Shown here: one piece after another, positions 5,903 to 43,719 of the stretch | Layout: each line of letters begins with the position of its first letter | Numbering within the stretch: the stretch's first letter is position 1 | Source: Candidatus Polarisedimenticolia bacterium | GTDB taxonomy: Bacteria > Acidobacteriota > Polarisedimenticolia > Gp22-AA2 | Length of the DNA stretch: 64,000 bases | Direction of reading: 5' to 3' | Assembly (NCBI GenBank): GCA_036001465.1 | Contig: DASYUH010000013.1 | Location: 92,554-156,553 of the forward strand | The notes under the pieces: generated by a model | The model's input: the letters and a program-made list of their open reading frames with translations, nothing else | Told to the model about the DNA's origin: nothing | The model's database searches: none | Program-made: the position numbers and the translations under genes

Positions 5903-7044
5903 AACGCCGCGAGCCTGTGCATGGCGAACCGGCCGAGCATTACGAGGTGCTCCGGGCGCGCGCGCGACATGTTCGAGGTCAGCTCCCGCCAGTGACCTTT
6001 GCGAAGGTGAATCCAGAGCCAGCTCAAGAGGTTCCCGGTGTTCAGCGAGGCTCTCTGGCGGGTGAACGCCTCTCGATACCGATCCAGGCGGATGTCCAGG
6101 CTGACCGCCTCGAGATGATCGATGATCCGCCGCGCCTCCGTTTCGACCGCCGGCACGACGCGGTAATCGTCCGTCACCTGGATCGGCACCACGGCGATCG
6201 TGCGGACCCCTTCCTTGTCGATCTCCATGATGAAGATGGCGGATTCCCTCTGCTTTTCGGGCACCGGCGGGACGCCCAGCTCTCCCTCGAAGACATCTGC
6301 GACGAAGTTGCCGAGGTTGTAAACCGCCGCCCGTCCTCCTTCCACGCCATAGCCCTGGAGGACGTGGGCGTGGTGCATGAGGACGACATGCGCGCCGGCG
6401 GCCAGGAGGCGGTCGGCGATCTCCTTGAACTCCGGTTTCGGGTAGTCGAGCCACATCAACCCGATGTGGATCGAGATGATGACGCAATCGACGCGATCCC
6501 GCAGCGCCGCAACCGATCGCATCGCGAGCCCCTCGTCCCATTCGACGAAGCCGGGCACCTCGGGATCGTCCTGCCGCTGCAGCGTCCTGCCGAATCCCAG
6601 CAGGCCGATCCGCAAGCCCTGTGCCTCGATTTCGACGGGCTGCGACGCCTCTTCCTGCGTCCCACCGGCGCCCAGCGGAAGCATCCCCGCGGCCGCCACG
6701 ACGCGACGCGTCTCCTGCAGTCCGCCGGGACCGTACTCCAGGATGTGGTTATTGGCCAGCGACAGCACCGTGAACCCGGCGCGCGACAGAGGCCCGGCCA
6801 TCGCCGGGTCACCCCTGAAGAGCTCCCGTCCCGGTCGCGGGGCGCACAGCGGGGTCTCCAGATTGCCGAAGACGATGTCCCCCGAGCGCAGGATCGGAGC
6901 GACCGCGGCGAACGCTTCGTCCGCGCCGGCCGCTCCCGGGTAGCGCCGGCGCACGCCGCCGGAGAGCATCAGGTCGCCGACTGCGACCAGACGGCAGGAG
7001 GCGCCCGCGGGCGCCCCCGGACGGCGGTAGAGCAGACGCTCCAC
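5887..7044 (-). CDS. CapA-family protein (poly-gamma-glutamate synthesis CapA-like metallophosphoesterase)
   Basis: 385 aa. Calcineurin-like fold motifs VAVGDLML, GNLETPL, LANNHILEYG, ISIHIGLMW...VLMHHAHVLQGY. Confidence 0.75.
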   Translation of the reverse strand: MERLLYRRPGAPAGASCRLVAVGDLMLSGGVRRRYPGAAGADEAFAAVAPILRSGDIVFGNLETPLCAPRPGRELFRGDPAMAGPLSRAGFTVLSLANNHILEYGPGGLQETRRVVAAAGMLPLGAGGTQEEASQPVEIEAQGLRIGLLGFGRTLQRQDDPEVPGFVEWDEGLAMRSVAALRDRVDCVIISIHIGLMWLDYPKPEFKEIADRLLAAGAHVVLMHHAHVLQGYGVEGGRAAVYNLGNFVADVFEGELGVPPVPEKQRESAIFIMEIDKEGVRTIAVVPIQVTDDYRVVPAVETEARRIIDHLEAVSLDIRLDRYREAFTRQRASLNTGNLLSWLWIHLRKGHWRELTSNMSRARPEHLVMLGRFAMHRLAALWRRS

Positions 7045-7340
7045 CTAATGCCTCACAGCGGTCGTGGGGATCGGCATCAGCACAGTTGCCATCAAGGATT
7101 CACCAGGGCTTCCGCGGTTGCGAGGGCCTGAATATACCCCGGCGGCCGGTGTACGGCAATGCTCATTCCGATCACGGATACCGTTCCTTCCGGCCAGCAT
7201 GGCAACCCTAGCCAGGCGCTGGGTCGCCAACTATCTCAGGCGGTGGGAAGCGGTGGAGCGGGTCTCACAAGCATTGGAGCCAGGGGAAACCGGGCGCACG
7301 CCCGAACATGCAGTCCAGGGCCCGCACGGGTACTGATGCG

Positions 7341-9083
7341 TCAGTCTGCACGTTCGTAGATGTCGATGTTCGGTCCGGGCCTCTCGACGTCGTGGAAACC
7401 GGCGAAGGGCAAATAGAACGCGTCCTGTTGATCGAAGAAGTTGTCCTTCCGATCGAGTTCGGTCACGTGGAAGGACCTCGTACGTCTGTAGGATTCTTCC
7501 AATAGGCGTCCTATCCCGGCCGGGATCTCATTGCGCGTTGAAAGCGGTGACGAGGCCGTGATGATGTATCGGGGTCGATCATGTCTGATCTCATGGCCAA
7601 AAGCGAACTTGCGAGATTTCGGATCATAGGCCCATTCCTCGAACACCCGGATCTGCTTCGCCTCTTGATGATCGGCTAGGATGCGGTCCATCTCCGCCCT
7701 CATCTCCCCGATGGCACCGGACGCAGGCTCAGAGGTCCTCTCCAGGGATTCACGAGTTTCGGGCAGCCGCAGGCGCTCCCAGCCGCCGGTTTGATAGACG
7801 GAACTGTGTCCCTCGAGGTGAGCCTGTGCCCAGTTGGTGGCCAGGAGGCGACTATCGGGTCTGTCGAGAAGCGAGTTTGATCGGATTACGTTATGGGCCG
7901 AAGGGAAGACAATGAGGCCCGCGAGGGCCAGGGTCGCACCGTTCTTCAGATAGGAGGAACGACCCCGTGCAATGAGGTCGGCGAGGTCAATGACACTGAC
8001 GGCTGCCGCGATGCAGAGAAAAGGGACGACGGGAATCATGTACCTGAGGAACACGGTCAACCCTTTTCCCGCGATGGCGTAATAGACCATGGGAAAGGAC
8101 CAGAGGACGAGCGCGGTTCTCGGACTTCGGCGTGCGAAAATGAACAATCCGACCAGCGATGCGACCAGCAGGCTCCATCCAAGGCCGTGCCACAAGGTAA
8201 AGCGGAGGTGGTACCACCATCCCCTGCCTAGGTCGATGCGATCGCCCGAAGAGAGATGCCACGCCTCGTAGAGAACCCCGGAAAGGAACGTCCGGAAATC
8301 GATCAACGCGAACGGTGTCCCGGCCAGGAAGGCGAATACCATCCCAAGGACAAAGACCAAGATCCGTCTATCGATCAAGGACCCGAGCACGCTGACGTAC
8401 AACGGGCGGACAAGCGACACGTGGCACAAAAGGAGAGGGACGGCCAGAAAAAGACCACTGTACTTCGTGGACATGGCCAGTCCGGCGAAAATCCCGGCGA
8501 GCAGGTAATTCGTCCGAGTCGGATGAGCATGGATTCTGGATATGAACAGAACGGAGCACATGATCAGAAACGCCAGCGGTACGTCCGTGACGCCAAAGTG
8601 CGAGTCTCGGACATGGAGGTGTGTCAGGGCGAGAAAAAGTGCTGCGACGAGGCCCGTCCTCCGGTCGACGGAGCGCGCGCAAATGCGGTAGACGAGCCAG
8701 ACGGTCGCGATGCCGAGAGTTGCCGAAATGGTTCTGTCAATGAGGTAGAAGTTGGACGGATCGAGCGCGTATTCGGTGAGAAAGTCGGGTCGCGATGAAT
8801 ACCTTCCCGACAGGGTCCCGAGAAGGTAGTAGCAACCATACAAGAAGAACAGGACATACATGTAGAGCGTGGGATAGTTAAACACGTGCGGATTGAAATC
8901 GCCGGAACTGAAGCGAAGCGCCGTTCTGATCAGGTGAGCTTCGTCGGGCCGGCACTCCGGGTTCGGGAGCCCGAAGCCGATTCCCCAGAATCTTACGAAG
9001 GCGGCGACACACAGAACAGCGAGGAGCGCCAGGCGGTGCCCCGTCGAATTCGAGTGCGAGCCCTGGTCACGTTCCGTGGTCAT
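7341..9083 (-). CDS. GT-C-fold glycosyltransferase, family 39/83-like (ArnT / protein O-mannosyltransferase-like)
   Basis: Polytopic membrane protein. N-terminal loop RPDEAHLIRTALRF has a DE-type motif after TM1. Many TM helices, then a C-terminal soluble domain of about 180 aa. GC about 57%. The ATG at 9083 (MTTERDQ...) has a GAGG 10 nt upstream. The ORF track TTG is at 9137. Confidence 0.7.
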   Translation of the reverse strand: MTTERDQGSHSNSTGHRLALLAVLCVAAFVRFWGIGFGLPNPECRPDEAHLIRTALRFSSGDFNPHVFNYPTLYMYVLFFLYGCYYLLGTLSGRYSSRPDFLTEYALDPSNFYLIDRTISATLGIATVWLVYRICARSVDRRTGLVAALFLALTHLHVRDSHFGVTDVPLAFLIMCSVLFISRIHAHPTRTNYLLAGIFAGLAMSTKYSGLFLAVPLLLCHVSLVRPLYVSVLGSLIDRRILVFVLGMVFAFLAGTPFALIDFRTFLSGVLYEAWHLSSGDRIDLGRGWWYHLRFTLWHGLGWSLLVASLVGLFIFARRSPRTALVLWSFPMVYYAIAGKGLTVFLRYMIPVVPFLCIAAAVSVIDLADLIARGRSSYLKNGATLALAGLIVFPSAHNVIRSNSLLDRPDSRLLATNWAQAHLEGHSSVYQTGGWERLRLPETRESLERTSEPASGAIGEMRAEMDRILADHQEAKQIRVFEEWAYDPKSRKFAFGHEIRHDRPRYIITASSPLSTRNEIPAGIGRLLEESYRRTRSFHVTELDRKDNFFDQQDAFYLPFAGFHDVERPGPNIDIYERAD

Positions 9084-9434
9084 CCCGAAGCCTCGGATTC
9101 GGATGGAAGGGGGGCCATTGCGGCGCTCAGAAGTCAAATCGTAAGGGCGCAGCGACCGCGTACAGGGAATGGCAGGATGAGCGTCATCTTCTCGAATTCA
9201 TGGGAGCGGAAGGTCCCCATGCATAGATCGGCCGCGCGGACGCATCACGCCGGCCCCTACGAGGGGTGTCAGGCCGATGGCCATGATGGCCGTGCGTCGT
9301 TCCAGCGATCGCAAGGCTAGGACCATGCCGGCATTCTAGCACTGTCGGGGCCTTGGCCGAGATGGCCTATCCTGCGCGGCGATCGTCCCAAGACAGCCAT
9401 TGGCTGCGTGCGACGGGCCTTCCGCGCGAAGGGT

Positions 9435-9554
9435 CCGGTGGTCCTCATCGACTGCGGCCGGAAGAACAACCAGGTGTGCATGCTCCTGGAGAAGAGCGCG
9501 GAGGGCGGCCAGGGACATCGTCTTCAGGTTGCTGGTGAGGCCTGTCTTGGACAT
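9435..9554 (-). pseudogene. Composite ghost: a carA-internal fragment (plus strand, about 9435-9500) fused to a DUF4388 5'-end fragment (minus strand, about 9490-9554)
   Basis: 40 of 41 nt are identical to carA codons for PVVLIDCGRKNNQ (CCGGTGGTCCTCATCGACTGCGGCCG[G/C]AAGAACAACCAGG). The antisense side encodes MSKTGLTSNLKTMSLAAL, versus the live DUF4388 start MSMKGLTGNLKTMSLPDL. Confidence 0.55.
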
Positions 9555-9692
9555 CGCTCCTCAGGGGCGGTCCGGACGGGGCCGCGGAACGCCCGGTCCT
9601 GGTGGGGAATCACCGGGACCGGGGATGGTTGGCGATTGCATGCCCCGGGCAAACGTCGTATATTCTGAGACCCGGCGGACCCAAGTTACGCG

Positions 9693-10157
9693 ATGAACCC
9701 CTTGGCCAGGAAGGCCCTGCTCTTCGCCCTCTTCTCCCTGCTTCTGGGAGGGGAGACGGCCTACTTCGGGCGCGAGTGCGCCGCCACAGTCCAGCGACAG
9801 CGGGGCGAGCGGGCCTTCTTCTGGAACGATCACCGCACCTCGTGGGGCCACAATCGGGCTGCTCTCGCCTGGGGAAGCAACCCCGAGCGCCTGCGGCGGA
9901 AGAGACCGATCGACCTCCAGGCCCCGTCAGAGGATCCCCGCGAGAACCTGACCCCCGCCCTCATCGAGATCGATGCCGCGCGCCTTTTGGTCGCGCAGGA
10001 CGAGCGCGATTGCACCGTGGAGTTCCGGAAGAAGGCCATCGCGATCGACCCGTGCTCCTACGATGCCCGGTTCCTGCTCGGGCTCCTCGCCCTGAACCCT
10101 GGCGCGAGCGGCCACCGGGAGCAGTGCGCCAGCATGGCGCCGGGGACGGCACGATGA
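9693..10157 (+). CDS. Small secreted protein with signal peptide and TPR-like C-terminus
   Basis: 154 aa. N-terminus MNPLARKALLFALFSLLLGGETAYF looks like a signal peptide. C-terminus AIAIDPCSYDARFLLGLLALNPG is TPR-like. Its TGA overlaps the ATG of the downstream ligase-like gene (ATGA), which suggests translational coupling. Confidence 0.45.
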   Translation: MNPLARKALLFALFSLLLGGETAYFGRECAATVQRQRGERAFFWNDHRTSWGHNRAALAWGSNPERLRRKRPIDLQAPSEDPRENLTPALIEIDAARLLVAQDERDCTVEFRKKAIAIDPCSYDARFLLGLLALNPGASGHREQCASMAPGTAR

Positions 10158-11578
10158 GCACGCTGCGTCGCGACATGAGCCGCCCGATCATGATGCTGAT
10201 CGTGTTGGGCTACCTGACGCTGCTGGCCGTCGGACTGATCCGGATGCACCTCGATCCGGACGTCGTGGCGGCCCTGACGATCGGCGGGATCGGCCTGGTC
10301 ATCCTGGCGCTGCGCCCGTACCTCGGGATCCATGCGTTCATCGCGGTCATGTACCTCGAAAACGTCCTTCCCAGCGAGGGCGGTGTCACGGGCCCGAAGG
10401 TGCTCGGTGCGGTCATCCTCACGGGATGGCTCCTGAGCGCCGCCCTGCGGCGCGGGCTGGGCTTCCGGCTGGGCGCGTTCGTGCTGGTGATGCTCGCGTT
10501 CGTGACCTGGACCGGCGTCTCCTCGGTCTACGCTCTCGACGACGAGCTGGCGCTCGCCCGCGTCTTCAGCTTCGTGCAGCTGGCGGGCGCGACGCTGATG
10601 TTCATCTCGGTCATCGATCGCCCGAGCCGGATGCGGGGAGTGCAGTGGGCCATCGTCCTGTGGACTTGCCTCGCCACCATCTTCGCCCTGGCGGAGTACT
10701 ACCTGGGGTTGACCAACGTCGCCGTGGGATTCATCGGCAACCGGAACGGGCTCGCCAGCGGGATCAGCTTCGCGATCGTCTTCGCCTGCTTGCTCTACCA
10801 GGCGGATCCGGGGCGACTGGCGAGGCTGTTCCTTATCTTCACCCTGCCGGTCTTCTTCCTCGGACTCGCGCTCACCCTGTCGCGCACCGGCTTCATCATG
10901 CTCGCCGTGGGGCTTCTGGCGGTCTGGTACAGGGTCGTCAGGGACAAGGGTCTTCTGATCCTGGCGGGATCGGTGGCCGCGCTCAGTCTGGTTACCGTCC
11001 TGCTACCGGACACCGTCTGGCAGCGCGTCGGCAGCATCGTCCCGGCCATCCGGCAGCAGCGGGACACCTTCGGATTGCGGGTCCGGCTGTGGCAGGCCGG
11101 CATGCGGATGATCGAAGACCGGCCGGTGTTCGGCGTGGGGCCGGGCAACTTCGTCGCGGCCCTGCCGCGTTACTCCCCGGGGGAGCTGACGGGCCGGCAG
11201 CTCGTGGCCCACAACTCGTACGTGAGCGTCGCGGCCGAGATGGGGCTCGTCGGCTTGGCCCTTTTCCTGATGATGTACCTGCTGGCGCTCCGCGAGGCCG
11301 GCTTCGCTTTGCGATGGGGGCGACGGTCGGGATCGAAGGAGTTGGAACTCCACGCGTTCGCGATGGAGATCAGCCTGATCCTGGTGATGACCGGGGCCCT
11401 CGCCGGCAGCCTCGAGAGCCTCAAGTACAACTGGATGTGCCTGGGGCTGGCCGTCGGTGTCGGGCAGGTGGCACGGCAGGCCTCGTCGAGGGCCGGGGCG
11501 CAACTCCGCGGCAGGGCGGTCGGCGCCGTCACGGAGGGTGCGGGCGGCCCAAACGTGGAGCCGCGGCGACTCGGCTGA
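10154..11578 (+). CDS. O-antigen ligase / Wzy_C-family membrane protein (polymerase/ligase-like)
   Basis: About 474 aa from the ATG at 10154. About 10 TM helices. Characteristic periplasmic loop motif RPVFGVGPGNF...AHNSYVSVAAEMGLVGLALF. The ORF-track 5' extension (9602-10153) is G/R/P-rich and overlaps the upstream gene. Confidence 0.75.
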   Translation: MSTLRRDMSRPIMMLIVLGYLTLLAVGLIRMHLDPDVVAALTIGGIGLVILALRPYLGIHAFIAVMYLENVLPSEGGVTGPKVLGAVILTGWLLSAALRRGLGFRLGAFVLVMLAFVTWTGVSSVYALDDELALARVFSFVQLAGATLMFISVIDRPSRMRGVQWAIVLWTCLATIFALAEYYLGLTNVAVGFIGNRNGLASGISFAIVFACLLYQADPGRLARLFLIFTLPVFFLGLALTLSRTGFIMLAVGLLAVWYRVVRDKGLLILAGSVAALSLVTVLLPDTVWQRVGSIVPAIRQQRDTFGLRVRLWQAGMRMIEDRPVFGVGPGNFVAALPRYSPGELTGRQLVAHNSYVSVAAEMGLVGLALFLMMYLLALREAGFALRWGRRSGSKELELHAFAMEISLILVMTGALAGSLESLKYNWMCLGLAVGVGQVARQASSRAGAQLRGRAVGAVTEGAGGPNVEPRRLG

Positions 11579-11740
11579 CGGACCCCCCGGCGCTTCACCG
11601 GCTGGTGCTCGTCGTCGGGCAGCTCACCCTCGCGGGCTCGAGAGACAGGTCGTCCTGCTGGCTTCCGGTCTCGATCGTCGCCCGTTCGAGATCGGCGAGG
11701 TCTCGCTCACCGCCTGTGGCATTTGGGGAAAGGCTCTGGG

Positions 11741-11788
11741 CGAGATCGCGCCGAGATGCCCCAACGCCAAGTCCAGAACACTGTTCAC
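11741..11788 (-). repeat. Ghost copy of the mlaE 5' end (translates VNSVLDLALGHLGAIS)
   Basis: About 79% nucleotide identity to 2803-2850, same strand. ATG is replaced by GTG and there is no SD. Lies in the 590-bp gap between the ligase-like gene and plsC. Confidence 0.55.
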
Positions 11789-12170
11789 GGAACTCGCCGC
11801 ATCATGGCAAGATGGATCAGCCCGCCCAGCAGCACGTGCAGGCCAAGGTTGAGGATTTGGAGAGGGACGGGATTCCGGCCGCAGAGAGCCTGGGCGGCCG
11901 ACGCCGGAACCTTTAAAAAGCCGGATCCGAAGTAAAACTGGAAGTCATCGGAAACGTAGCCGCCGGTCAGCCCCACGCCCTATACGGCCACACAGGCCGC
12001 CGAAAGAAGCGTCAGGCAAAGGCCGGAGGCGTTCCGCGGAGTTGCGTTTTCGGCACGGATGAAAGAGAACGGAAGTCTAACGGAGCGACGTGCTCCGGTC
12101 AAGGAACGGAGCGCACAGTCTATACTTGCCGCCGGAGGGACCGCACCATCCCGCGACCGAGTCTGCGCTG

Positions 12171-12902
12171 ATGAACCTGCTTCGCCTGGCGCTCATTGTC
12201 CTGTACACCTTCGTGATCGGAACGATCACGATTGTCCTCTGTGTTCTGGTCCCTGGGGGTTCGACTCTGAGGCCGCTGGCGCGCCTCTGGTCCTGGCTGG
12301 TGCTGCGGACCTGCCGGGTGCGCTCCCGGGCCATCTACCATCCGCACCTGGATCCTGCCCGACCGAGCATTTACATCGCGAACCACCAGAGCCAGTTCGA
12401 CATCCCCGCGCTCGCACTGGCCATGAAATCCGATTTCCGGATGGTCTCCAAGCGAGAGCTCCTTTACGTGCCCGTTTTCGGTTGGGCTCTCTGGTTCGCG
12501 GGATTCGTCTTCATCGACCGCACCAACCGCGCCAAGGCGATCCAGAGCCTGGATCGGACGGCACGCATGATTCGCAAGGGAACCTCGGTCGTCGTGTTCG
12601 CAGAGGGCACGCGCAGCCCCGACCGCCGGCTCCTCCCCTTCAAGAAGGGAGGGTTCATCCTCGCGTTGCAGGCCGGCGTGCCGATCGTCCCCGTCTCCAT
12701 CCGAGGTGGACACGACGTCCTGCCCAAGGGCAGTCTGCGGATCCGGCCCGGCACCATCGAGGTAGTGTTCGGCGAACCGGTTCCGACCTCCTCCTATTCC
12801 CTGGAGACCAAGGACGATCTGATCGCCGCAGTGCGGGAGCGGATCACGGCGGGACTCGCTCAGACGCCGGACCTGTTCCGCGTCTCCACATCTGCTATTT
12901 GA
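12171..12902 (+). CDS. plsC: 1-acyl-sn-glycerol-3-phosphate acyltransferase family (PlsC/LPLAT)
   Basis: N-terminal TM helix, then HxxxxD catalytic motif (ANHQSQFD), FAEGTRS and PIVPVSI motifs. ATG at 12171 (MNLLRLALIVLY). Confidence 0.75.
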   Translation: MNLLRLALIVLYTFVIGTITIVLCVLVPGGSTLRPLARLWSWLVLRTCRVRSRAIYHPHLDPARPSIYIANHQSQFDIPALALAMKSDFRMVSKRELLYVPVFGWALWFAGFVFIDRTNRAKAIQSLDRTARMIRKGTSVVVFAEGTRSPDRRLLPFKKGGFILALQAGVPIVPVSIRGGHDVLPKGSLRIRPGTIEVVFGEPVPTSSYSLETKDDLIAAVRERITAGLAQTPDLFRVSTSAI

Positions 12903-14814
12903 TGTCGTGCAGCGAATCCTGGCGGCCCAGATCCCCATCCATGAACATACGGAACCACAGCTCGAGCCAGAGGAGCGCCCACAATTTCGAGGACTGGTCC
13001 TCGCCAGCCATGTGGCGAGCGATGAGGCTCCGCACCTCCGACCGATGGAAGTAGCCGCGACTCTCGAAACGCGGGTGCGTGAGCAGCACTTCGAGCGGCT
13101 TTCTCAGGGGTCCGCGCAGCCACGACGCCAGCGGGATGCCGAAGCCCTGTTTGGGGCGGTAGACGACCGAGGGAGGGACCAGTCGCGCGGCCAGGGTCTT
13201 GAGAAGATGCTTCCCCTGCAGCCATTTGAATTTCATCGAGGACGGCAGCGCGGCGGCGAACTCCAGGATGCGGAAATCGAGCAGCGGCGAACGGGTCTCG
13301 AGCGAGTTCGCCATCGACGCGATATCCATTTTCACCAGTAGATCGTCGGGAAGATAGGTCTGGATCACCACCTGCAGCCCCCTGTCCACCTCGTCCGCTC
13401 CATCGGTGCCGAGGTACACCTCATGGCAGTACTCGGCCGGATCGAGGCTGGTCAGCTGCGAACGGAAGGAGGGAAGGTAAAGCCTCTCCAAGTCTAACCT
13501 TTTATACCCCGGCCAGATCCAGAAGAGGTCGGCGGCCGAGCGCTCGGCCCACTCCGGCAGCAGGCCCACCAGGGTCAGGAGCCGGCCGTGGGCCCCCGGC
13601 ACCCGCTTCAATGCGCTCCCGAGAGACTTCAGGGCGGCGCGGCTCAAGCGTCGGCCCGCCAGACGGCGGCACCACTCGATCGTTCGAATCGCGCGGTTCC
13701 AGGGGTAGCCTGCGAAGGGCTCGTCGCCCCCGTCGCCATTCAAGGCGACCTTGACGTGCTTGCGGGCCGCTTCCGACACGTAGTAGCTCGGAACCGCGCT
13801 TGAATCGGCGAAGGGCTCCCCGTAATGCCACACCAGCCTGGGAAGGATGGCCGCGGCGTCCGCCTCGACGCGGATTTCAGTGTGCTCCGTGTGCAGCGCC
13901 TCCGCGACAGCCCGTGCATGGGGCAGCTCGTTGTGGCTCTCTTCGGCGAACCCGACCGAGAACGTCCGCACGGCGCCACCGGCCCGGCTCATCATGGCGA
14001 CGACCGTGCTCGAATCAACTCCGCCGCTGAGGAATGCCCCCAGAGGCACGTCGCCGATGAGGCGCAGCCGGGTCGCGTTCTCGAGGAGTTCATCGAGCCG
14101 CTCGACCGCCTCTTCCTGGGTGCAACGGATTTTTTCTCGAAACGACAGCTTCCAGTAGGAATCGGTGCGCGCTCCTGTCCGCGTGCAGGTCATGACGCTT
14201 CCGGGCGGCACCTTGCGCACGCCCGCGTAGATGGACATGTCACCGGGAACGCACAGGTAGCCGAGGTAGGAGTTCAGGGCGGCCTGGTCGACCGGTGGGA
14301 TGCTCTTCAGTCCCCGGACCAGCGCCCGCACCTCGGAGGCAAAGACGACTTCACCGTCTCCGTCCCGGTAGAAGAGCGGCTTCTTGCCGACCCGGTCCCG
14401 GGCCAGGTAGAGCGTCTGCCGCGGCGCGTCCCACAGGGCGATGGCGAACATGCCGTTGAGGCGCCTGACCACGTCGATCCCCCAGTGCATGTATCCCTGC
14501 AGGATGACCTCGGTATCGCTCTGGGTGAGGAAGCGCCGCCCCTGCGACTCCAGATCGGATCGCAGCTCCCGATAGTTGTAGATCTCGCCGTTGAAAACGA
14601 TCCGGGCGGATCCGTCCTCCGGCCCCATGGGCTGATTCGCCGTGGGGGAAAGATCGATGATGGCGAGACGGTTGAAGGCCAGACCGATGTGCGGCGACGT
14701 GTGCAGGCCTTGGTCATCCGGACCTCGGTGCGCCTGGTCGTCCCTCATCCGCAGGAGACGATTGACCTGGATCGGCGAGTCTCCCCGACTGAAGATCCCA
14801 GCGATGCCGCACAT
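12895..14814 (-). CDS. Asparagine-synthase-family glutamine amidotransferase, paralog 1
   Basis: 639 aa. Starts MCGIAG (Cys2 Ntn nucleophile). Class-II GATase motifs RGPDD, RLAIIDL, GEIYN. Synthetase-domain PP-loop SGGVDSS. 19 nt downstream of the large OM protein gene on the same strand. Confidence 0.85.
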   Translation of the reverse strand: MCGIAGIFSRGDSPIQVNRLLRMRDDQAHRGPDDQGLHTSPHIGLAFNRLAIIDLSPTANQPMGPEDGSARIVFNGEIYNYRELRSDLESQGRRFLTQSDTEVILQGYMHWGIDVVRRLNGMFAIALWDAPRQTLYLARDRVGKKPLFYRDGDGEVVFASEVRALVRGLKSIPPVDQAALNSYLGYLCVPGDMSIYAGVRKVPPGSVMTCTRTGARTDSYWKLSFREKIRCTQEEAVERLDELLENATRLRLIGDVPLGAFLSGGVDSSTVVAMMSRAGGAVRTFSVGFAEESHNELPHARAVAEALHTEHTEIRVEADAAAILPRLVWHYGEPFADSSAVPSYYVSEAARKHVKVALNGDGGDEPFAGYPWNRAIRTIEWCRRLAGRRLSRAALKSLGSALKRVPGAHGRLLTLVGLLPEWAERSAADLFWIWPGYKRLDLERLYLPSFRSQLTSLDPAEYCHEVYLGTDGADEVDRGLQVVIQTYLPDDLLVKMDIASMANSLETRSPLLDFRILEFAAALPSSMKFKWLQGKHLLKTLAARLVPPSVVYRPKQGFGIPLASWLRGPLRKPLEVLLTHPRFESRGYFHRSEVRSLIARHMAGEDQSSKLWALLWLELWFRMFMDGDLGRQDSLHDIK

Positions 14815-27470: not shown

Positions 27471-29447
27471 ATGTGCGGCATTTTCGGAATTGTGGGAGAC
27501 CCGGTGCCTGCCGGGATCGATCGAGCCTGCGACGCCATGCGCCACCGCGGCCCCGACGACCGGGGCACCTACCTCGACGCCGGCGCCGGGCTGGGAATGA
27601 CCCGGCTGGCGATCCTCGACCTGTCCCGGGCCGGCCACCAGCCGATGGGCACCGAAGACGACTCCCTGTGGATCGTCCACAACGGCGAGGTCTACAACTT
27701 CGGGGAGGAGCGACGCCGGCTGGAGGCGAAGGGTCTACGATTCCGATCACACACGGACACCGAGGTGATCCTGCGCCTGTACGAAGAGCTGGGCCCGGCG
27801 TGCATCGATCGCCTGCGGGGGATGTTCGCTTTCGCGGTCTGGGATGCCCGGAATCGGCGCCTGTTTGCGGCACGGGACCGCCTGGGCATCAAGCCCCTTT
27901 ATTATGCGTGGGACAGCCACCGGCTCGTCTTCGCTTCCGAGCTGAAGGCCCTGCTGGCCAGTGGCCTGGTGGAGGGCCGCCTCTCCATGGAGGGGCTGGC
28001 GCTGTACCTGACCTTTGGCTACGTCCCCTCACCCTGCACGCTGATCGAAGGGGTGCAGGCGCTGCAGCCCGGGCATCACCTGACCCTGGAGAAGGGGCGC
28101 TTGACGGTGAGGCGCTACTGGGATCTGCCGACGGGCAGCGATCGGCACGCCTCGCGGTCGGCAGACGAGAGGGAGGCTGCCGCGGAACTCCGCGCCCTCC
28201 TGACGGAGAGCGTCCGCCTCCGGCTGATCAGCGACGTGCCGATTGGCGCCTTCTTGAGCGGGGGGATCGACTCGGCGGCCGTGGTCGCCCTCATGGCCGA
28301 GGCCCGCTCGGGGCCGGTCAAGACTTTCTCCATCGGCTTCGATGCCGACGGGAAAACCCTGGACGAGACCGACGACGCGGGCTTTCTCGCCAAGCACCTG
28401 GGAACCGACCACACGCGGCGCATCGTGACGGGCCGCGAGGTCGCCGACCTCGTCGATCGTCTCGGCCGGGCCCTCGACCAGCCGTCATTCGATGGAATCA
28501 ACAGCTATATCGTGTCGCAAGTGGCACGCACTGGCGTGACCGTGGCCCTGACGGGACTCGGAGGAGACGAGCTGTTCGCGGGCTACCCTCATTTCTGGCG
28601 TCTCCATTGGGAATACCGGAATGGAGGATGGCCGCACACGATCCAGAGGTCGATCAAGACGGCCCTCGCGGGGGCAGGCACCTTGATCCAGCCCTGGTTT
28701 CGGGGGACGCCTCTGGATCGGTATGCGGACTGGGCCCGCGTGCAGCACGGTTTCGTCACCCGCTACGGTCTATCTCACACCCTTTTCCCGCCGGCGCAAC
28801 AGCACGCCCTCTGCACCCCCGGATTGGCCGCATCGGCCCCGATCGGGCGGCTTGCCTCCGACTACCTGGGAGCCCTCGACGACCCGCGCGCCCATGATCT
28901 GATCGCGCGCGTCAGCCGCCTCGACCTCAAGGGGTACATGGCGCACCGGCTGCTGAGAGACATGGATGCCATGAGCATGGCCCACTCCCTCGAGGTGAGG
29001 GTGCCTCTCATCGACCATCGGCTCGTCGAGTTCGCCTACGCCCTGCCGGCTTCCTACAAGTATCAACCCGGGAGCGCCGCCCCGCCCGGCGGCGAACGGG
29101 AGGCCAGCTATCGTCAGTTGGGGGCGAAGAGGATTCTCATCGATTCGGTTCGGGATCTGCTGCCAGTCGGCTACGAGGACCGCCCCAAGACCGGATTCCA
29201 CCTTCCCATGGCCTCCTGGATGAAGAGCGACCTCCGACCCGCCGTGGACGACCTGCTGAGCCGGGAGTCCGTGCGGCGGCGAGGGCTGTTCCGCCCGGAG
29301 GCCGTTGCGCGGCTTTTGGCGGGGTTCCATGGAGGCGCGGTTCCGTGGCACCAGGTCTGGGCGCTCGCGGCGCTCGAGTTGTGGCAGCGCCAGGTTCTTT
29401 ACTCGGGCGCCGCCGCCCCGGCGGGCGACCAGCGGGCGACCGCGTGA
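27471..29447 (+). CDS. Asparagine-synthase-family glutamine amidotransferase, paralog 4
   Basis: Start set at the ATG at 27471 so the product begins MCGIFG. RGPDD, RLAILDL, GEVYNF, PP-loop SGGIDSA. Its TGA overlaps the GTG of the downstream GT4 (GTGA). Confidence 0.85.
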   Translation: MCGIFGIVGDPVPAGIDRACDAMRHRGPDDRGTYLDAGAGLGMTRLAILDLSRAGHQPMGTEDDSLWIVHNGEVYNFGEERRRLEAKGLRFRSHTDTEVILRLYEELGPACIDRLRGMFAFAVWDARNRRLFAARDRLGIKPLYYAWDSHRLVFASELKALLASGLVEGRLSMEGLALYLTFGYVPSPCTLIEGVQALQPGHHLTLEKGRLTVRRYWDLPTGSDRHASRSADEREAAAELRALLTESVRLRLISDVPIGAFLSGGIDSAAVVALMAEARSGPVKTFSIGFDADGKTLDETDDAGFLAKHLGTDHTRRIVTGREVADLVDRLGRALDQPSFDGINSYIVSQVARTGVTVALTGLGGDELFAGYPHFWRLHWEYRNGGWPHTIQRSIKTALAGAGTLIQPWFRGTPLDRYADWARVQHGFVTRYGLSHTLFPPAQQHALCTPGLAASAPIGRLASDYLGALDDPRAHDLIARVSRLDLKGYMAHRLLRDMDAMSMAHSLEVRVPLIDHRLVEFAYALPASYKYQPGSAAPPGGEREASYRQLGAKRILIDSVRDLLPVGYEDRPKTGFHLPMASWMKSDLRPAVDDLLSRESVRRRGLFRPEAVARLLAGFHGGAVPWHQVWALAALELWQRQVLYSGAAAPAGDQRATA

Positions 29448-30757
29448 GCCAGGGCACCCCCCTCTCCCTTATCTATCTACAAAACGGCAGCGGCACGGGA
29501 GGGGCCGGATTCAGCCTGGACGTCCTGCTGGCCCATCTGGACGCCGGCCGGTTCCGGCCGATCGTCTGGACCTGCGACGACGGACTCATGGTGCGGCGGT
29601 GGGAAGGGCGAGGGGCCCGGGTGGTGGTCCGCCGCATGCATCTCTTCGAGGGGCTCGACACGCACTTCGTGCAGGGCGCCATCGAACGCGATCCATCGGG
29701 ATGGCGCCGATCCAGCCTCCAGGCTCTCACGGCCGCCAGGGCTGCGGCCGCCCTGCCGGGCGAGATCGCCTTCCTGCGGCGCCTGCGGGCCCGTCAGGGG
29801 GTCGTCGTGCATGTGAACTCAATCGTCGCGTTGAGCGCGGGCCTTGCGGCTCGGCTCCTCGGCCTGCCGATCGTCTGGCATGTCCGCGAAATCCTCGCCC
29901 CGGGCGTCTGGGGGCGCATCGCCCGCCGGATCATCCTCTATTCGGCCTCCCGTATCGTCGCCGTGTCCGCTGCGGCCGCCGCCCCCTTTCAGGACGCGGG
30001 CGTTCCGGTGCAGGTCGTTCATAACGCGATCGAACTGAAGGCGTTCGATCCGTCCCTCGACGGCGCCCCCGTCCGCCGCGAGCTGGGTCTCCCCCCGGAC
30101 ACGCCCGTCGTCGGCTTCGTCGGGAGGCTGTTCCCGAGCAAGGGGACCTTCGATCTCCTACAGGCCATGTCAATCGTCTCCCGGGAGTTTCCCGGCGCTC
30201 ACCTCCTGATCGTGGGGGGGGACGATCCTCCGCAGGCCCACTCGTCAGGGGCGACCTGGAAAGGCAGGCTCCGCCGTCGTCTCGGTTTCGGGCAGGCGCC
30301 CGACTACCTGCCGCTCCTCCGGTCGGAGGCGGACCGTCTGGGCCTGGGGGACCGCGTCCATCTCCTCGGGCCGCGGCACGACACGCCCCGGCTCCTGGCG
30401 GCCATGGACGTCGTCGCGCTGCCGTCGCGCACGGAGGCGTTCGGCAGGACCATCATCGAGGCGATGGCCATGGCCAGGCCGGTCGTGTCCGTCGCCGTCG
30501 AGGGAATTCTCGATCTGATCCGGCACGACGAGAACGGGATCCTGATCCCGCCCCCCTCCCGGGTGGAGGATCTGGCCGTCGCCATCGCTGCGCTCCTCAA
30601 GGACCCGGGCCGCCGGGAGGCCCTGGGGCGGGAAGGTCGTCTATCCGTGGTCGATCGGTTCTCGGCGGAGCGTCACGCGCGGGCGATCATGGCCGTCTAC
30701 GAGGATCTGGCGGCCGGTCACATCGGACGCCAGGTCCAGATGCCGCGGGCGTATTGA
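29444..30757 (+). CDS. Glycosyltransferase family 4
   Basis: GTG at 29444 overlaps the paralog-4 stop. N-terminal domain SLIYLQNGSGTGGAGFS. C-terminal domain VHLLGPRHD...MDVVALPSRTEAFGRTIIEAMAMARPVVS. Confidence 0.8.
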   Translation: MSQGTPLSLIYLQNGSGTGGAGFSLDVLLAHLDAGRFRPIVWTCDDGLMVRRWEGRGARVVVRRMHLFEGLDTHFVQGAIERDPSGWRRSSLQALTAARAAAALPGEIAFLRRLRARQGVVVHVNSIVALSAGLAARLLGLPIVWHVREILAPGVWGRIARRIILYSASRIVAVSAAAAAPFQDAGVPVQVVHNAIELKAFDPSLDGAPVRRELGLPPDTPVVGFVGRLFPSKGTFDLLQAMSIVSREFPGAHLLIVGGDDPPQAHSSGATWKGRLRRRLGFGQAPDYLPLLRSEADRLGLGDRVHLLGPRHDTPRLLAAMDVVALPSRTEAFGRTIIEAMAMARPVVSVAVEGILDLIRHDENGILIPPPSRVEDLAVAIAALLKDPGRREALGREGRLSVVDRFSAERHARAIMAVYEDLAAGHIGRQVQMPRAY

Positions 30758-31656
30758 AACCGCAGGCGCAGGTCGCCGAGCGGCAGCGCCCCCAGGATCG
30801 ACTTGATCAGGCCGATGAGCACCGTGGCCGGGACGTCCACCACCTGGAGCGCGAGGCGGTAGAGTCGCGCAGGCCGGCGGCCGAAGCAGCGCTCGAGGTA
30901 GCGCTGAATACTGATGGCTCCGTTCACCAGTGTCCGGACCGGCGCCTGGCGGGCGCTCCGCCCTCCCAGGTGGGCAACCCTGGCTTCCGGCACGAAGTAG
31001 ATCTTCCATCCATCGCGGCGGATTCGGAAGCAGAGATCCAGGTCCTCGCCGCAGTGGATGAAGCATTCGCCGAACCCTCCCCCCTTCTCGAACAGGTCGC
31101 GGCGGAGCAGCATGGCGGCCCCCGAAATCGCCTGGACCTCCTGGACCACCTGGGGGTCGTAGGGTGAGACCAGCCGCTTCCTGAACCATGGTCCTACGAG
31201 AGGGAGCTTCTGGAGCCTGAACACGTCGATGGCCACGAGCCGCGCCGCGGTCGGCTGGACGCGGGCCGAGGTCTCCTGGAAGGTGCCGTCCTCGTTCCAC
31301 AGGGAGGGGCCCAGCATGCCCGCATCCGGGTGCTCCTGAAGGAAACGGATCAGGATCCCGAGGGCGCCCGGCATCACGATCGTATCCGGGTTCAGGAGCA
31401 GGACGAATCGTGCCGTCGCCAGGCGGAGGCCCAGGTTGCTCGCCCGGGCGAACCCCAGGTTGGCGCCGTTGACGATCACCTGGACCGATGGAAATTCGCC
31501 GCGCAGCATCGCGACGCTGTCGTCCGAGGACGCGTTGTCGACCACGATCAACTGCAGCGACAGGCTCGACGCGTCGGCGACCAGCGAGCGGATGCACTGC
31601 CGGAGGAGCGGCGCCACATTCCAGCTGACGATGATGACGGAGACGTCGGGGATCAT
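30718..31656 (-). CDS. Glycosyltransferase family 2
   Basis: 312 aa. VSVIIVSWN, VVDNASSDDS (DxD-type), LLLNPD, HCGEDLDLCFR. Convergent with the GT4 and overlaps it by about 40 nt. Confidence 0.8.
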   Translation of the reverse strand: MIPDVSVIIVSWNVAPLLRQCIRSLVADASSLSLQLIVVDNASSDDSVAMLRGEFPSVQVIVNGANLGFARASNLGLRLATARFVLLLNPDTIVMPGALGILIRFLQEHPDAGMLGPSLWNEDGTFQETSARVQPTAARLVAIDVFRLQKLPLVGPWFRKRLVSPYDPQVVQEVQAISGAAMLLRRDLFEKGGGFGECFIHCGEDLDLCFRIRRDGWKIYFVPEARVAHLGGRSARQAPVRTLVNGAISIQRYLERCFGRRPARLYRLALQVVDVPATVLIGLIKSILGALPLGDLRLRFQYARGIWTWRPM

Positions 31657-31668
31657 GAGCGTCCGGTC

Positions 31669-32628
31669 CTAGGTCGAGGGTCGAAGCACCGCGTGCCCGT
31701 ACTCGGGAATCGACGTCATCGGGCGGTGGGGAGGATCCAGCTCGCAAAGATCATAACCGACGCTCGCCAGGAAACCGCGCAGGGCCGCTTCGGTCGTGTC
31801 GAACAGCCGCCAAGCAAAGGAGTGCACCTCGAGGAAGATCCACGGACGGGCCGTCCGGAGCGTCTCGGCGGCGCCCTGCAGGGCCCAGAGCTCGGCCCCC
31901 TCCACGTCGATCTTCATGACTGAGGGCGGCGGCCCCCCGGCACGGACGAACTCGTCGAGCCGGATCGCGCAGATCGGCACCCAGGACGGTTGCGCGTCTT
32001 CCTGAGGATAGACGTTGCGCAACGCGTTGCCCGACGCCCAGGTCGTGGCGAGGGTCGGCCAGACGGGCATCGACACCACGCCGGCAGTGTTGGAGCAGGC
32101 TGCCTCCATGACCCGGATGCGATCGTCGAGGCCGTTCAGGGCGCAGTGTCGCCTGAGCAGACGGACCGTCTCGGGAACCGGTTCGAAGGCGACGACGCGC
32201 CCGTGCTCCTCCACGCGCCGGCAGGCGGCGATGGCGTACCAGCCGACGAAGCTGCCCACGTCATAGAACACGTGTCCCGGCTCGAGGTGCGCCAGCAGGG
32301 CGGCCAGCAGCCGATCGTCGCGCGGCACGGGGTAGCCGACCAGGAAATCGAAGTCCAGCCACAACGACTCCTCAACCGACGGCAGCTTGCAGCGGGCACG
32401 GCCGCGTCGCAGCGCGCGCTCCACGGCGAGGCTTGCCGCCTTGACGTTCCGGGCGCAGCGCCGTGCCGGCGCCTCGAGGGTTGAGCCTCGAATCCATGCG
32501 GGCATGGCCCAACGCGCGACCCATCCCGGACGGTTCATCGCTTCGTCACCTGGAACTCCCCGTTCCCTTTGCGCCCGGCGCGGAGCCTCAGCAACCCTCC
32601 GATGACCACGCGCGCATCGTCGATTCAC
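31669..32628 (-). CDS. FkbM-family methyltransferase
   Basis: Motifs FYDVGSFVGWY, VVAFEPVPE, MKIDVEGAEL. The 5' end is uncertain. The first 30-60 codons are R-rich and abut the flippase-fragment repeat. ATG candidates lie at about 32538 and 32502. Confidence 0.65.
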   Translation of the reverse strand: MNRRCARGHRRVAEAPRRAQRERGVPGDEAMNRPGWVARWAMPAWIRGSTLEAPARRCARNVKAASLAVERALRRGRARCKLPSVEESLWLDFDFLVGYPVPRDDRLLAALLAHLEPGHVFYDVGSFVGWYAIAACRRVEEHGRVVAFEPVPETVRLLRRHCALNGLDDRIRVMEAACSNTAGVVSMPVWPTLATTWASGNALRNVYPQEDAQPSWVPICAIRLDEFVRAGGPPPSVMKIDVEGAELWALQGAAETLRTARPWIFLEVHSFAWRLFDTTEAALRGFLASVGYDLCELDPPHRPMTSIPEYGHAVLRPST

Positions 32629-32867
32629 AGGCCGTGCAACTGGGCGGCGTAGATTCCAATCCCGAGAGTGCGCCCCGTCATGACCTGCACGATCCGCGGC
32701 CCCTCCCTTCCAAGCTCGGCTAGGCGCTCGAAAACGCCTGCCCAGGCCAGAAGGGGCACCCCCATGACGACGGCAGCCGCGAGGACCCTGGCGGCGAATA
32801 GGGTATCACCCGGGCCCCAAACTGTCCCGACCCCTCGGAGCACCAGGAGAAGCAGGATGAGGAGGAA
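32625..32867 (-). pseudogene. Duplicated 3'-end fragment of the MurJ/Wzx-like flippase gene (repeat copy A)
   Basis: Encodes ...LLILLLLVLRGVGTVWGPGDTLFAARVLAAAVVMGVPLLAWAGVFERLAELGREGPRIVQVMTGRTLGIGIYAAQLHGL*. This is about 65% identical to the C-terminus of the intact flippase at 35834-36077. It shares an exact 28-mer GCGGCGAATAGGGTATCACCCGGGCCCC (32791-32818 versus 36000-36027). Confidence 0.6.
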
Positions 32868-32879
32868 ACCACGCACGTA

Positions 32880-33108
32880 CGCCTCTCCCGAGGCTCTCGC
32901 GGATACCATCGTGTCCGTCATGAAGAATGACGCAAAACGTGCGGCAATCGGGCGCACTGCCCGCCATGCGGTGTTGCAGCGGTTCTACGCGGCGTATCGC
33001 GCGGATCGAATGATGGCCGTCGGCTCCGGCTCGAAGGCAGGCGTGACACCTGGGGGAACCGATCCTAGCCGCCTCAAAGCGCTCCTGAACCTTGGCTCAA
33101 ATCTCTGA
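32880..33108 (+). pseudogene. GT4 glycosyltransferase 3'-end fragment
   Basis: Encodes ...PEALADTIVSVMKNDAKRAAIGRTARHAVLQRFYAAYRADRMMAV, which parallels the C-terminus of the GT4 at 29444-30757 (VEDLAVAIAALLKDPGRREALGREGRLSVVDRFSAERHARAIMAV). No N-terminal domain is present. Confidence 0.35.
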
Positions 33109-34783
33109 CGAAGATGGAATACGCCCCGAACGTCGCCGAGTGACGATAGTTTCGCGTGAGATAGGCATCGAGTAGAGCCGCTCCCTCTTCCCGGTTGGCT
33201 GCGGTCGTCGACTCGGCATCGGCTCCCGACCAGAGAACGACGTACCGCACATCGCGTGCTGCAAGATCCTTCGCAATCTCACCCTGTACGCGCTCCGTGG
33301 TAGCGACGCCGGGGTGCAGCTCGTGATATCGGGTGGCGCTGTCCCTGTCCGCGAGAAAATAGAAGAGCACATCGTTTGTCTCGACCCTGCGGTGTGTCCA
33401 GAGTCCCACAAAGATACGCTCGCCCGGTCCCACGTGATCAACGATGTATCCGACAGCGGCCAATTCGTCCGGGTCGGCCACCGCGTACCCCAACCGACGC
33501 TCCGGCAAGGTCGACCAATCCCCGCTCCGCGGGAGAGCTTCCGTCGGAGGTCCCAGGATCACGCGTGCCTTGACGTAGACGGGCTCGACGAGCATGGGGA
33601 GTAACAGAACCAGCGCCGCGACTGCCGGCAGATAGGACGCCCCGCCGGAAGGTCGCTTCAGGATCCCCTGCCCCAGAGGCAGGAGGAGGAGCACGGGGAC
33701 GGAGAAGACAAGCAGATGAGGCAGGTCCGCTCGGACGAGTATTTGAGGAAACAGAGCTCCCGCGAGCAGCGTAAGGTGCAGGATTGTCCATCGTCGGGCC
33801 CGGTCGAGGGAGTCCTGAACGTGAGGTCGCCCCACAAGGAGCAACATGGACAGCACAAACACCAGCGGAACGACATAGTAGGGAAGGGCGGTCAGTGAGT
33901 ACGAGAGATACGAGCGAAGCGAGAGAGAACCATTGAGGAAGAGAGAGAGGCCCGGCGGACGAGGATACGGGAGGGCGCGCACGGAGGGAAATACATGGGC
34001 CGGGAAGATGATCAGATCCTCTATTACTTCCTTCAGAGGAACGGCTATCACGAGACAGAGTGCGACTGGGAGCACGATAATCGCAACCCCTAACACATAG
34101 AGGAGGATTCCCTGCATCCTGCTGGCAACCCGCGCCCATGAGCCCGACTCGGTGACAGTTCCGGTGGATGCCGAGAAAGTCAGGACAATCAGTCCTGCGA
34201 GGGACGCGTAGAATCCCACGTCATGACGGAATACTGCTGTAGCTCCGGCAGCCATACCTCCGAGAAGCAGTCTGAGCGGGCTCGTCGGATCGATGCTGTG
34301 GCGCTCGAGCAGCAGGACGGATGTCATGCTGAGAAGAAGGGCTATCAGCACGGAGGAGCCGAAGGGCGAGAACCTACCGAGCCAGACGGTCCCCACGAGC
34401 CAGCACAGGAGGGCTGTGCTCCGGGAGACGAAGGGCGCCGTGATTCTCCAGGCGAGCAGCACCAAGGATGAGCGGATGAGGATGTTCGAAACACGCTCCA
34501 CCAGGAGGGACGGCCCGAACAGCTTGAAGAGTGCCGCCAGGAGGTAGAACTGGCCGGGCGGGTACATCGTCCACCAGTCCCGGTAAGGGAGTTCTCCTCT
34601 CAACACCCTGAGGGCCCCGTAGACGATGACACCTTCGTCATACGGATTGGCGTGGAGGGTCACATCGGGAAGAAAGTAAAGCACCGAAAGTATCGCCAGC
34701 GATGGATAGAGCCACGCCTCATTCAGGGGCTGCCTCCACCTCCGGGTGCGTTCCAGCCGTAGATCCACCAGGCGCGCCTCCAC
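33074..34783 (-). CDS. GT-C-fold glycosyltransferase, ArnT/PMT-like (family 39/83-like)
   Basis: 569 aa. First periplasmic loop YDEGVIVYGALRVLRGELPYRDWWTMYPPGQFYLLAALFKLFG is the ArnT/PMT DE-motif region. 10 or more TM helices, then a C-terminal soluble domain. GC about 58-60%. Confidence 0.65.
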   Translation of the reverse strand: MEARLVDLRLERTRRWRQPLNEAWLYPSLAILSVLYFLPDVTLHANPYDEGVIVYGALRVLRGELPYRDWWTMYPPGQFYLLAALFKLFGPSLLVERVSNILIRSSLVLLAWRITAPFVSRSTALLCWLVGTVWLGRFSPFGSSVLIALLLSMTSVLLLERHSIDPTSPLRLLLGGMAAGATAVFRHDVGFYASLAGLIVLTFSASTGTVTESGSWARVASRMQGILLYVLGVAIIVLPVALCLVIAVPLKEVIEDLIIFPAHVFPSVRALPYPRPPGLSLFLNGSLSLRSYLSYSLTALPYYVVPLVFVLSMLLLVGRPHVQDSLDRARRWTILHLTLLAGALFPQILVRADLPHLLVFSVPVLLLLPLGQGILKRPSGGASYLPAVAALVLLLPMLVEPVYVKARVILGPPTEALPRSGDWSTLPERRLGYAVADPDELAAVGYIVDHVGPGERIFVGLWTHRRVETNDVLFYFLADRDSATRYHELHPGVATTERVQGEIAKDLAARDVRYVVLWSGADAESTTAANREEGAALLDAYLTRNYRHSATFGAYSIFVRDLSQGSGAL

Positions 34784-34853
34784 AGCCTCGGTAGGTCAAT
34801 CTTCCTGCTTCTAAACCCGATCGCTGGTCCTTCGAGCGTTCGGTCTGGGTCGT

Positions 34854-35420: not shown

Positions 35421-35764
35421 GGGCGGCAGTGGGTGGGTGGATCTTCAGGGACACGAAAAGCGACGGGAGCGCTTCCATCTGACGGTAATTCGCCGTGGGG
35501 TTGGTCGCGCTGTTCAGCACGATGCTCTGGATCCGACGGTAGATTTCAATCTGGGTTGTCAGGATGATGATCAGGGCGAACACGATGGAGCACTCAAGGG
35601 ACCAGTCTGGAACCAACCACCGCGTGAGGGACGAGCCGACGATGACGAGCAGGAGAAGGCCGACAATGCAGACGACGTCTTTCCTCGAAAGGCTCATCGG
35701 ATCGGTCCTTCCTTCGCAGTCGCAGCGGGCATGGATCTCGAGGCTCGGAACGAGGAGAACACGT

Positions 35765-37897: not shown

Positions 37898-37961
37898 CGG
37901 GCGGCGTGGTGGCCAGCCCGGAAACTGGACCTGTCCCGGCCCGAGCGGCCCACGAGCGCCG

Positions 37962-43623: not shown

Positions 43624-43719
43624 CGGGCGCGCAGAATAGCACACCAGGAGTGTGCCCGAGCGTTCGGCCGGGCTGACGGAGAGTGCTACAATGCCTGGGT
43701 GCGTTGAGAGGTCCGTCCG

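Follow-up and report, generated by a model that had tools for sequence, protein, structure and literature searches.

Bacterial pseudogenes are eroded by microhomology-associated deletion (illegitimate and RecA-independent), and xenologous gene copies arrive with a genomic island, the redundant copy being lost afterwards. In the O-antigen clusters of Salmonella, the wzy remnants of groups B1 and D1 have been degraded "by serial deletions" following lineage-specific paths (PMC3715488), and gene remnants are a recurrent anomaly in nine O-antigen clusters of E. coli, where they are interpreted as signs of relatively recent genetic events (PMC7685785). The intergenic relic described here is a familiar gene remnant of variable polysaccharide loci, an already known sort of feature. 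As in Salmonella and E. coli, cassette exchange has left apparently non-functional fragments within a hypervariable glycan locus or on its border, each lineage retains its own parts of the same original gene through different serial deletions, and the fragments mark past recombination. Unlike the O-antigen remnants, which come from glycan genes, the genes involved here are housekeeping ones (carA, carB, DUF4388 and p230) that seem to have hitch-hiked with a glycosyltransferase gene, and the host belongs to an uncultured lineage of Acidobacteriota. Neither an IS element nor an H-repeat was noticed where the pieces join. These hitch-hiking housekeeping remnants, an assignable donor clade and an erosion series over three lineages make the case modestly unusual.

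The relic was detected in a 64,000-nucleotide stretch of a Candidatus Polarisedimenticolia contig (the window, with a G+C content of 67%), within a 609-nt spacer at positions 9084-9692. The spacer is flanked on one side by a gene encoding a PMT-type (GT39) glycosyltransferase of 580 aa (7341-9083, minus strand; Pfam PMT/PMT_2; called in six assemblies), and on the other by a 154-aa ORF (p154; 9693-10157, plus strand) paired with the Wzy_C/O-antigen-ligase-like gene that stands behind it on the right flank (10154-11578, plus strand). When positions 9300-9700 were queried by BLAST against the whole window, two significant matches were found. The first one, 9435-9484 (plus) against 43059-43010 (minus), with 46 of 50 nt identical (92%, E 2e-15), falls within the resident carA (42511-43644, minus strand; Pfam CPSase_sm_chain and GATase). 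The second one, 9511-9580 against 38005-37935 (minus), with 53 of 71 positions identical (74.6%, E 9e-7), covers the start of the resident gene for a DUF4388/PatA_N protein (37962-39110, plus strand; Pfam), in such a way that 44 nt are coding and 27 nt lie upstream of the start codon. The resident carB (39092-42514, minus strand) is located between DUF4388 and carA, and the whole intact DUF4388(+)-carB(-)-carA(-) block (37935-43623; Pfam) is the positional orthologue of the blocks found in the contigs L024, L028, L031, L040, L042 and L023. Six relatives keep the same DUF4388-carB-carA-small ORF order.

A previous reading of this DNA, made from the letters and called here the sequence-only reading, had placed the carA and DUF4388 points about 5 kb apart in the live locus and in the same relative orientation as the relic pieces; the measured distance is 5,005 nt, both pairs are converging, and the identities that it gave to the two live genes were confirmed by Pfam. 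It had further claimed 40 of 41 matches between 9435-9475 and carA, with weaker similarity on the flanks. The near-identity of this 41-mer stands, although with 39 of 41 matches (mismatches at 9461 and 9475), and its 13 codons match resident carA at 38/39. The left flank (9408-9434), however, is a donor-type carA-upstream intergenic region and not carA. An extension of the carA match towards the left obtained with tblastn (aa 180-195; 9408-9434) was rejected, as a better nucleotide alignment is given by the carA-upstream spacer of L040 and L015, two of the relatives considered below.

The sequences used for comparison were metagenome contigs, not closed genomes. Homologues of the PMT protein with 91%, 88% and 84% identity were traced to the contigs L015-L017, L019-L022 and L023, respectively. 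A metagenome scan with PMT produced seven loci, mostly the known ones again, and the GTDB species representatives scanned with the same protein gave only distant, non-syntenic matches, the best one being in an Omnitrophota MAG (46%). In a further PMT relative, L037 (77%), no recognisable carA, DUF4388 or p230 was found upstream. In the 171-kb contig L023, the genes DUF4388(+)-carB(-)-carA(-)-p230(+)-PMT(+) are intact and contiguous, and its PMT shares 83.6% amino acid identity with that of the window. Once flipped, this block reads PMT(-), p230(-), carA(+), carB(+), DUF4388(-), the exact order and orientation of the relic pieces, in such a way that PMT and the remains p230', spacer, carA' and DUF4388' of the window are colinear with it. 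The sequence-only reading had raised the comparison with relatives that might keep an intact second DUF4388/carAB copy; in L023 an intact block adjoins a PMT orthologue. Further along, L023 carries AT4, a 244-aa gene, TPR and TGT, which are the genes behind resident carA in the window; this same series lies directly behind the block in L024 and L028, and behind a variable insert in L031, L042 and L023.

Eroded versions of the block were detected in the closer relatives at the same site. In L015, L016 and L017 the spacer measures 1,219 nt, of which around 0.77 kb is block-derived in L015. In this type of relic, codons 4-121 of carA' run head-on to codons 176-6 of DUF4388', and in the three contigs nt 1-390 of carA' are joined to nt 517-404 of DUF4388', followed by a 136-nt gap and by nt 267 to -27. 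The DUF4388' piece of L015 is orthologous to that of the window and has a 2-nt deletion that shifts its frame, and positions 1-354 of the L015 intergenic region are 86% identical to 9084-9441 of the window. In L019-L022 the spacer has 412 nt, and only p230', spacer sequence and 34 nt of carA' survive in it. The three lineages retain three different subsets of the block, with neither extent nor reading frame conserved, as expected in the absence of purifying selection. These different deletions support that a single ancestral insertion would have been eroded independently three times.

The best reference for the anatomy of the relic in the window was L040 (NCBI GCA_040961615.1), with which three colinear pieces could be aligned. 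On the PMT side, the N-terminus of p230 (around codons 1-38) is left at 9210-9323, minus strand; in L023 p230 lies between carA and PMT, and its residues 4-38 match window positions 9314 to 9210 at 54% (tblastn, E 3e-7). This p230' relic is also found in L015 and L019, and in blastn positions 9228-9441 are 77.8% identical over 216 nt to 9168-8958 of L023. The p230-carA divergent intergenic relic of the foreign block follows at 9324-9441 and stops ~15 nt short of the former start codon of carA, its part 9356-9441 being 88.4% identical over 86 nt to the carA-upstream spacer of L040 (15675-15590, with L040 carA starting at 15575). At a first deletion junction (9435-9441) this upstream sequence is joined to carA nt ~589, with the loss of ~602 nt. 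The carA' island occupies 9435-9504 on the plus strand, in sense, corresponds to codons 197-220 of an L040-type carA (nt 589-658) and contains the 41-mer. At a second junction (9500-9505), carA nt ~658 is joined to DUF4388 nt ~54, and the ~4,863 nt lost comprise the remainder of carA, the whole of carB and the larger part of DUF4388. Beyond it lie the first 18 codons of DUF4388', of L040/L023 type by nucleotide alignment (9501-9554, minus strand), and its ribosome-binding/upstream region, assigned by donor-type similarity (9555-9586, minus strand). Together, 9501-9586 are 93.0% identical to 10054-9969 of L040 (DUF4388 nt 54 to -32), and the donor-type similarity stops beyond ~9586-9615, so that the foreign segment has its right edge there.

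Short homologies are found at both junctions, as deduced from the related live L040 and not from the actual sequence before the deletions. At the first one, the alignments to L040 overlap by 7 nt (CCGGTGG, 9435-9441), an imperfect microhomology in L040; at the second one they overlap by 4 nt (9501-9504), with a 6-nt microhomology whose two copies in L040 are both GAGGTC, the window having GAGGGC. The locus resembles eroding pseudogenes in these shared end points (~7 nt, imperfect, and 6 nt) and in the independence of the deletions in sister lineages, and differs from the textbook case in that replication slippage and end joining are indistinguishable here. The term relic is used since the homology to functional genes is significant, each gene is covered only as a fragment (24 of ~375 codons for carA', 18 of ~385 for DUF4388' and ~38 of 230 for p230', carB being absent), and intact colinear counterparts exist.

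Relics of this kind in high-GC genomes yield spurious gene calls, as in the case of L015. Both L015 (8828-9625, minus) and L017 (3854-4651, minus) have it annotated as a "CPSase_sm_chain" protein of 265 aa, reading from carA' into antisense DUF4388', and in L016 (3956-4831, plus) it is called as a 291-aa ORF on the strand opposite to those calls; these chimeric ORFs are artefacts of the annotation. In the window, a 72-aa ORF (9336-9554, minus) consists of the 18 DUF4388 codons fused to sequence antisense to carA'. It was discarded as a real gene, given that it belongs to no Pfam family, is uncalled in six assemblies and has a frameshifted counterpart in L015.

The source of the relic was addressed through its similarity to the live copies. 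The pieces in the window are 88-94% identical to the L040/L023 clade and 73-83% to the resident genes. For the carA island (9435-9504), 66 of 70 positions match L040 (94.3%), 60 match L023 and 58 match the resident gene (83%). In the DUF4388 piece (9511-9580) the respective values are 65, 64 and 51 of 70; its coding part (9511-9554) gives 41/44, 40/44 and 35/44, and its non-coding part (9555-9580) matches L040 and L023 at 24/26 each and the resident locus at 16/26. For the spacer piece no match was found in the resident locus. The longer L015 relic shows the same affinity, with 90-91% identity to L040, 81-87% to L023 and 68-80% to five other live copies over 634 columns, and in a neighbour-joining tree of these columns it groups with L040 and L023 at 100% bootstrap, as sister to L040 at 93%.

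An intragenomic inverted duplication of the resident DUF4388-carB-carA block at the other end of the glycan region, with subsequent decay, would fit the order and orientation of the pieces and their significant matches to the resident genes. We consider it unlikely, as all pieces of the relic resemble the L040/L023 clade far more than the resident genes, down to the 26 nt upstream of DUF4388', the L015 relic falls inside this clade with full bootstrap, and the neighbouring PMT gene has the same clade affinity. In this gene, the identity between the window and L023 at fourfold sites is 77.9%, in excess over carB (54.6%), carA (49.1%), DUF4388 (57.1%) and AT4 (57.7%); the baseline between the window and L040 is 44-62% over ten genes, and the PMT value equals that of carB between L023 and L040, 77.9%. 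The differential loss of an ancient paralogue may also be considered, but it needs the L040/L023 copies to be paralogues of the resident one, despite the same synteny on the left flank (thiolase, acyl-CoA dehydrogenase and the MurJ/AsnS glycan genes). This synteny, common to the live copies of L040 and the window, makes them positional orthologues, so that the relic is best read, on the grounds of sequence comparison, as a xenologue from the L040/L023 clade and not as a decayed copy of the resident genes. The sequence-only reading had offered either a recombination junction or a second DUF4388-carB-carA neighbourhood, since deleted and decayed. This main reading is right, and it is supported by the intact block of L023 and by the relics of the relatives, but the source is not the resident genes.

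None of the contigs found combines an L040-like sequence with PMT adjacency: L040 is the closest one, and L023 has the adjacency but only 89% identity, versus 93-94%. L040 itself was rejected as a donor carrying PMT, as no PMT homologue is present within 10 kb of its block. Compared with known xenologous copies on islands, the likeness is that a foreign and a resident housekeeping operon would have coexisted, one being lost, with phylogeny and synonymous divergence marking the origin. Unlike genomic islands, the genes adjoining the relic show no integrase, transposase or other mobility domain in Pfam searches of window positions 7,000-12,000 and of the 10-kb flanks in the relatives.

We conclude that the relic very probably represents the non-functional, eroded remains of a horizontally acquired second p230-carA-carB-DUF4388 copy, of which some 400 bases are left. 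The donor would belong to the L023/L040 clade of Candidatus Polarisedimenticolia (Acidobacteriota), where the housekeeping block adjoined a PMT-type glycosyltransferase gene. A segment with at least DUF4388-carB-carA-p230-PMT would have been acquired by the ancestor common to the lineages of the window, L015 and L019, and would have landed at the far end of their variable region of glycan synthesis, in inverted orientation with respect to the resident block. PMT would then have been retained and the redundant housekeeping genes lost piecemeal, through different deletions in each lineage. In that of the window, two microhomology deletions (~0.6 kb at the first junction and ~4.9 kb at the second one) would have left the carA-upstream spacer, a 70-nt internal island of carA, and 18 codons of DUF4388 with around 30 upstream nt. 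The direction of the transfer, its single origin, the mechanism of insertion and the lack of present function are the parts of this scenario that we infer. For the inverted position, 28 kb away from the resident block, illegitimate insertion and inversion after the insertion are both possibilities. We also sought one inversion or duplication that would lead from an L023-like gene order to a window-like one, without reaching a unique solution.

If so, the relic would record the movement of a glycosyltransferase gene between two clades of uncultured soil Acidobacteriota (Polarisedimenticolia) together with its housekeeping neighbours, and the series of three lineages would show how redundant DNA is whittled by short-homology deletions. 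Its value is mainly practical, and no new biological question is opened by it.

The high identity of the 41-mer had been regarded as surprising for a decayed relic, with recent gene conversion or a functional short element as possible causes. The stretch encoded by it, PVVLIDCGRKNNQ, has a nucleotide sequence that most of the compared lineages conserve, and only for this reason does the island look almost identical to resident carA: six comparable live carA genes match the 41-mer at 35-41 positions, five of them at 38-41, with 41/41 in L040 and 39/41 in the resident gene. The 29 nt that follow it match L040 at 25/29 and resident carA at 19/29. Both pieces of the relic are almost equally diverged from L040 (94% and 93% identity for carA' and DUF4388'), and therefore there is no discrepancy of the 41-mer to be explained. 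Zero mismatches in 41 nt is slightly better than what the ~9% divergence from L040 predicts (a probability of ~0.02 for one fixed 41-nt stretch, non-significant when the choice of the stretch is allowed for). Descent from an L040-like gene accounts for its identity, and neither of the proposed causes is needed.

A recent conversion event or a templated patch, by which the 41-mer was copied from resident carA or was inserted as filler at the deletion junction, would account for the 39 of 40 matches between its first 40 nt and resident carA when the DUF4388 piece reaches only 75%. We regard this as very unlikely: the same 41 nt are fully identical in L040, the next 29 nt are of donor type, as is the island overall, and the values of the six live genes make a high identity expected by descent. 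Gene conversion from the resident copy does not account for the donor-type 3' half of the island.

The relic is neither a repeat nor a product of the assembly. The sequence-only reading had allowed for a generic GC-rich repeat occurring at many unrelated loci; a search of the window and of every fetched locus having the 40-mer located it only at the relic and in carA genes, which discards such a repeat. Regarding the assembly, the sequence is that of a metagenome-assembled genome, and similar samples contain donor-type relatives, so a chimera of reads belonging to two strains present together, or a binning artefact, was considered. Its probability is negligible, because six contigs, assembled independently from five samples with two pipelines, agree at 100% over the 609-nt intergenic region, other lineages hold orthologous relics with their own deletions, and the junctions are located at microhomologies within a region of conserved flanks.

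With respect to function, no Rfam match at E <= 1 was obtained for the relic. No sigma-70-like promoter site was found in it, and the sole terminator-like match lies outside, inside the PMT coding region. Folding of the minus-strand RNA of 9400-9620 was no better than that of shuffled sequences (z -1.7). The carA' island is absent from L015 and L019, the two closest lineages. A trans-acting antisense sRNA or riboregulator is expected to have a conserved sequence or structure and its own promoter and terminator, and none of these was found. These in silico data suggest that the relic is non-functional at present. Just outside it, a putative promoter for p154 and Wzy (TTGCAT-17 nt-TATATT, 9636-9664, plus strand) lies 29 nt upstream of the p154 ATG, in a stretch (9629-9692) whose conservation with L019 is 84%. 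The consensus scanner left this site unflagged, its first hexamer having only 3/6 matches.

A co-opted relic could act as a minus-strand PMT leader or sRNA, with 40-70 nt antisense to the carA mRNA, or as a plus-strand RNA antisense to the DUF4388 start, and rare recombination between the inverted 40-mers could make the segment between them invertible. Along the first line, the island, read on the minus strand, is antisense to the resident carA mRNA at 39/41 positions and is located on the PMT strand, upstream of that gene, and carAB feeds the pyrimidine supply and hence that of UDP-sugars, so that a link with glycan synthesis is conceivable as an inference; if true, such an RNA may couple the carbamoyl-phosphate/pyrimidine (UDP-sugar) supply to the expression of the glycosyltransferase. 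Co-option and inversion taken together are highly improbable. L015 and L019 lack the island despite having the same PMT and p154/Wzy genes, and the relic shows neither an Rfam match, promoter-like or terminator-like sites, nor unusual folding. An inversion between the 40-mers would, if true, flip a 33-kb segment, switching carA off. The minimum for RecA-mediated exchange is about 26 nt. The longest perfect run common to the 40-mers is just 26 nt, and such an exchange would break the one carA that is intact. The sequence-only reading had raised inversion isomers of the glycan segment that the live and relic copies bracket. No evidence for an invertible segment was found, ten of ten independent contigs showing a single arrangement at each end. 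Neither both orientations nor sufficiently long or identical repeats were found (the repeats match at 39/41), and Pfam detected no recombinase or integrase domain in the genes adjoining the relic or the live block.

Other rearrangements were observed around the glycan locus. A second relic, at 32550-32837 (minus), is homologous to the C-terminal ~85-95 residues of MurJ, with 59% identity to the MurJ of the window (35765-37348) and 60% to that of L040, and it is located directly upstream of the Methyltransf_21 gene, the site occupied in L040 by an intact MurJ, which suggests that it is debris of another cassette replacement. A MurJ-Methyltransf_21-GT2-GT1/4-AsnS cassette is located between acyl-CoA dehydrogenase and DUF4388 both in the window (27471-37348) and in L040 (2701-9366), in opposite orientation, and the version of the window has 3-5 extra ORFs, including a 569-aa ORF and Methyltransf_24. 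The opposite orientation of the cassette indicates that part of the glycan region was inverted between the clades, and this inversion is not bounded by the relic.

On the right-hand side of carA there is a second variable spot, delimited by the small p216/p230 gene and the aminotransferase-IV gene. Nothing is inserted there in the window, L024 and L028, and the spot contains a cation-efflux gene in L042 (16417-17313), a GT1 fragment, AsnS and cation efflux in L031 (16662-19738), and PMT, PMT_2, a methyltransferase, cation efflux and ACPS in L023 (9779-16130). In L040 (16426-21164), four uncharacterised ORFs come after the small ORF, with no aminotransferase-IV gene within the 10-kb flank, the far end of the insert being unseen.

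Within the block, the convergent 3' ends of DUF4388 and carB overlap by 19 nt (39092-39110), and this overlap is kept in L024, L028, L031, L040, L042 and L023. In L027 (JGI 3300009147; 11131-14499), gene calling splits carB into two ORFs (441 and 678 aa), due to either a frameshift or an assembly error, and in the near-identical L024-L026 it is a single gene of 1,137 aa. On the other flank of the relic, p154 (9693-10157) encodes a protein with a signal-peptide-like sequence, and it is a fast-evolving gene: its counterpart in L019 is only 43% identical, and that of L015 is a 310-aa ORF (7849-8781) with an insert inside it, placed between residues ~68 and ~86 in the numbering of the window protein, the homology being distributed in three pieces.
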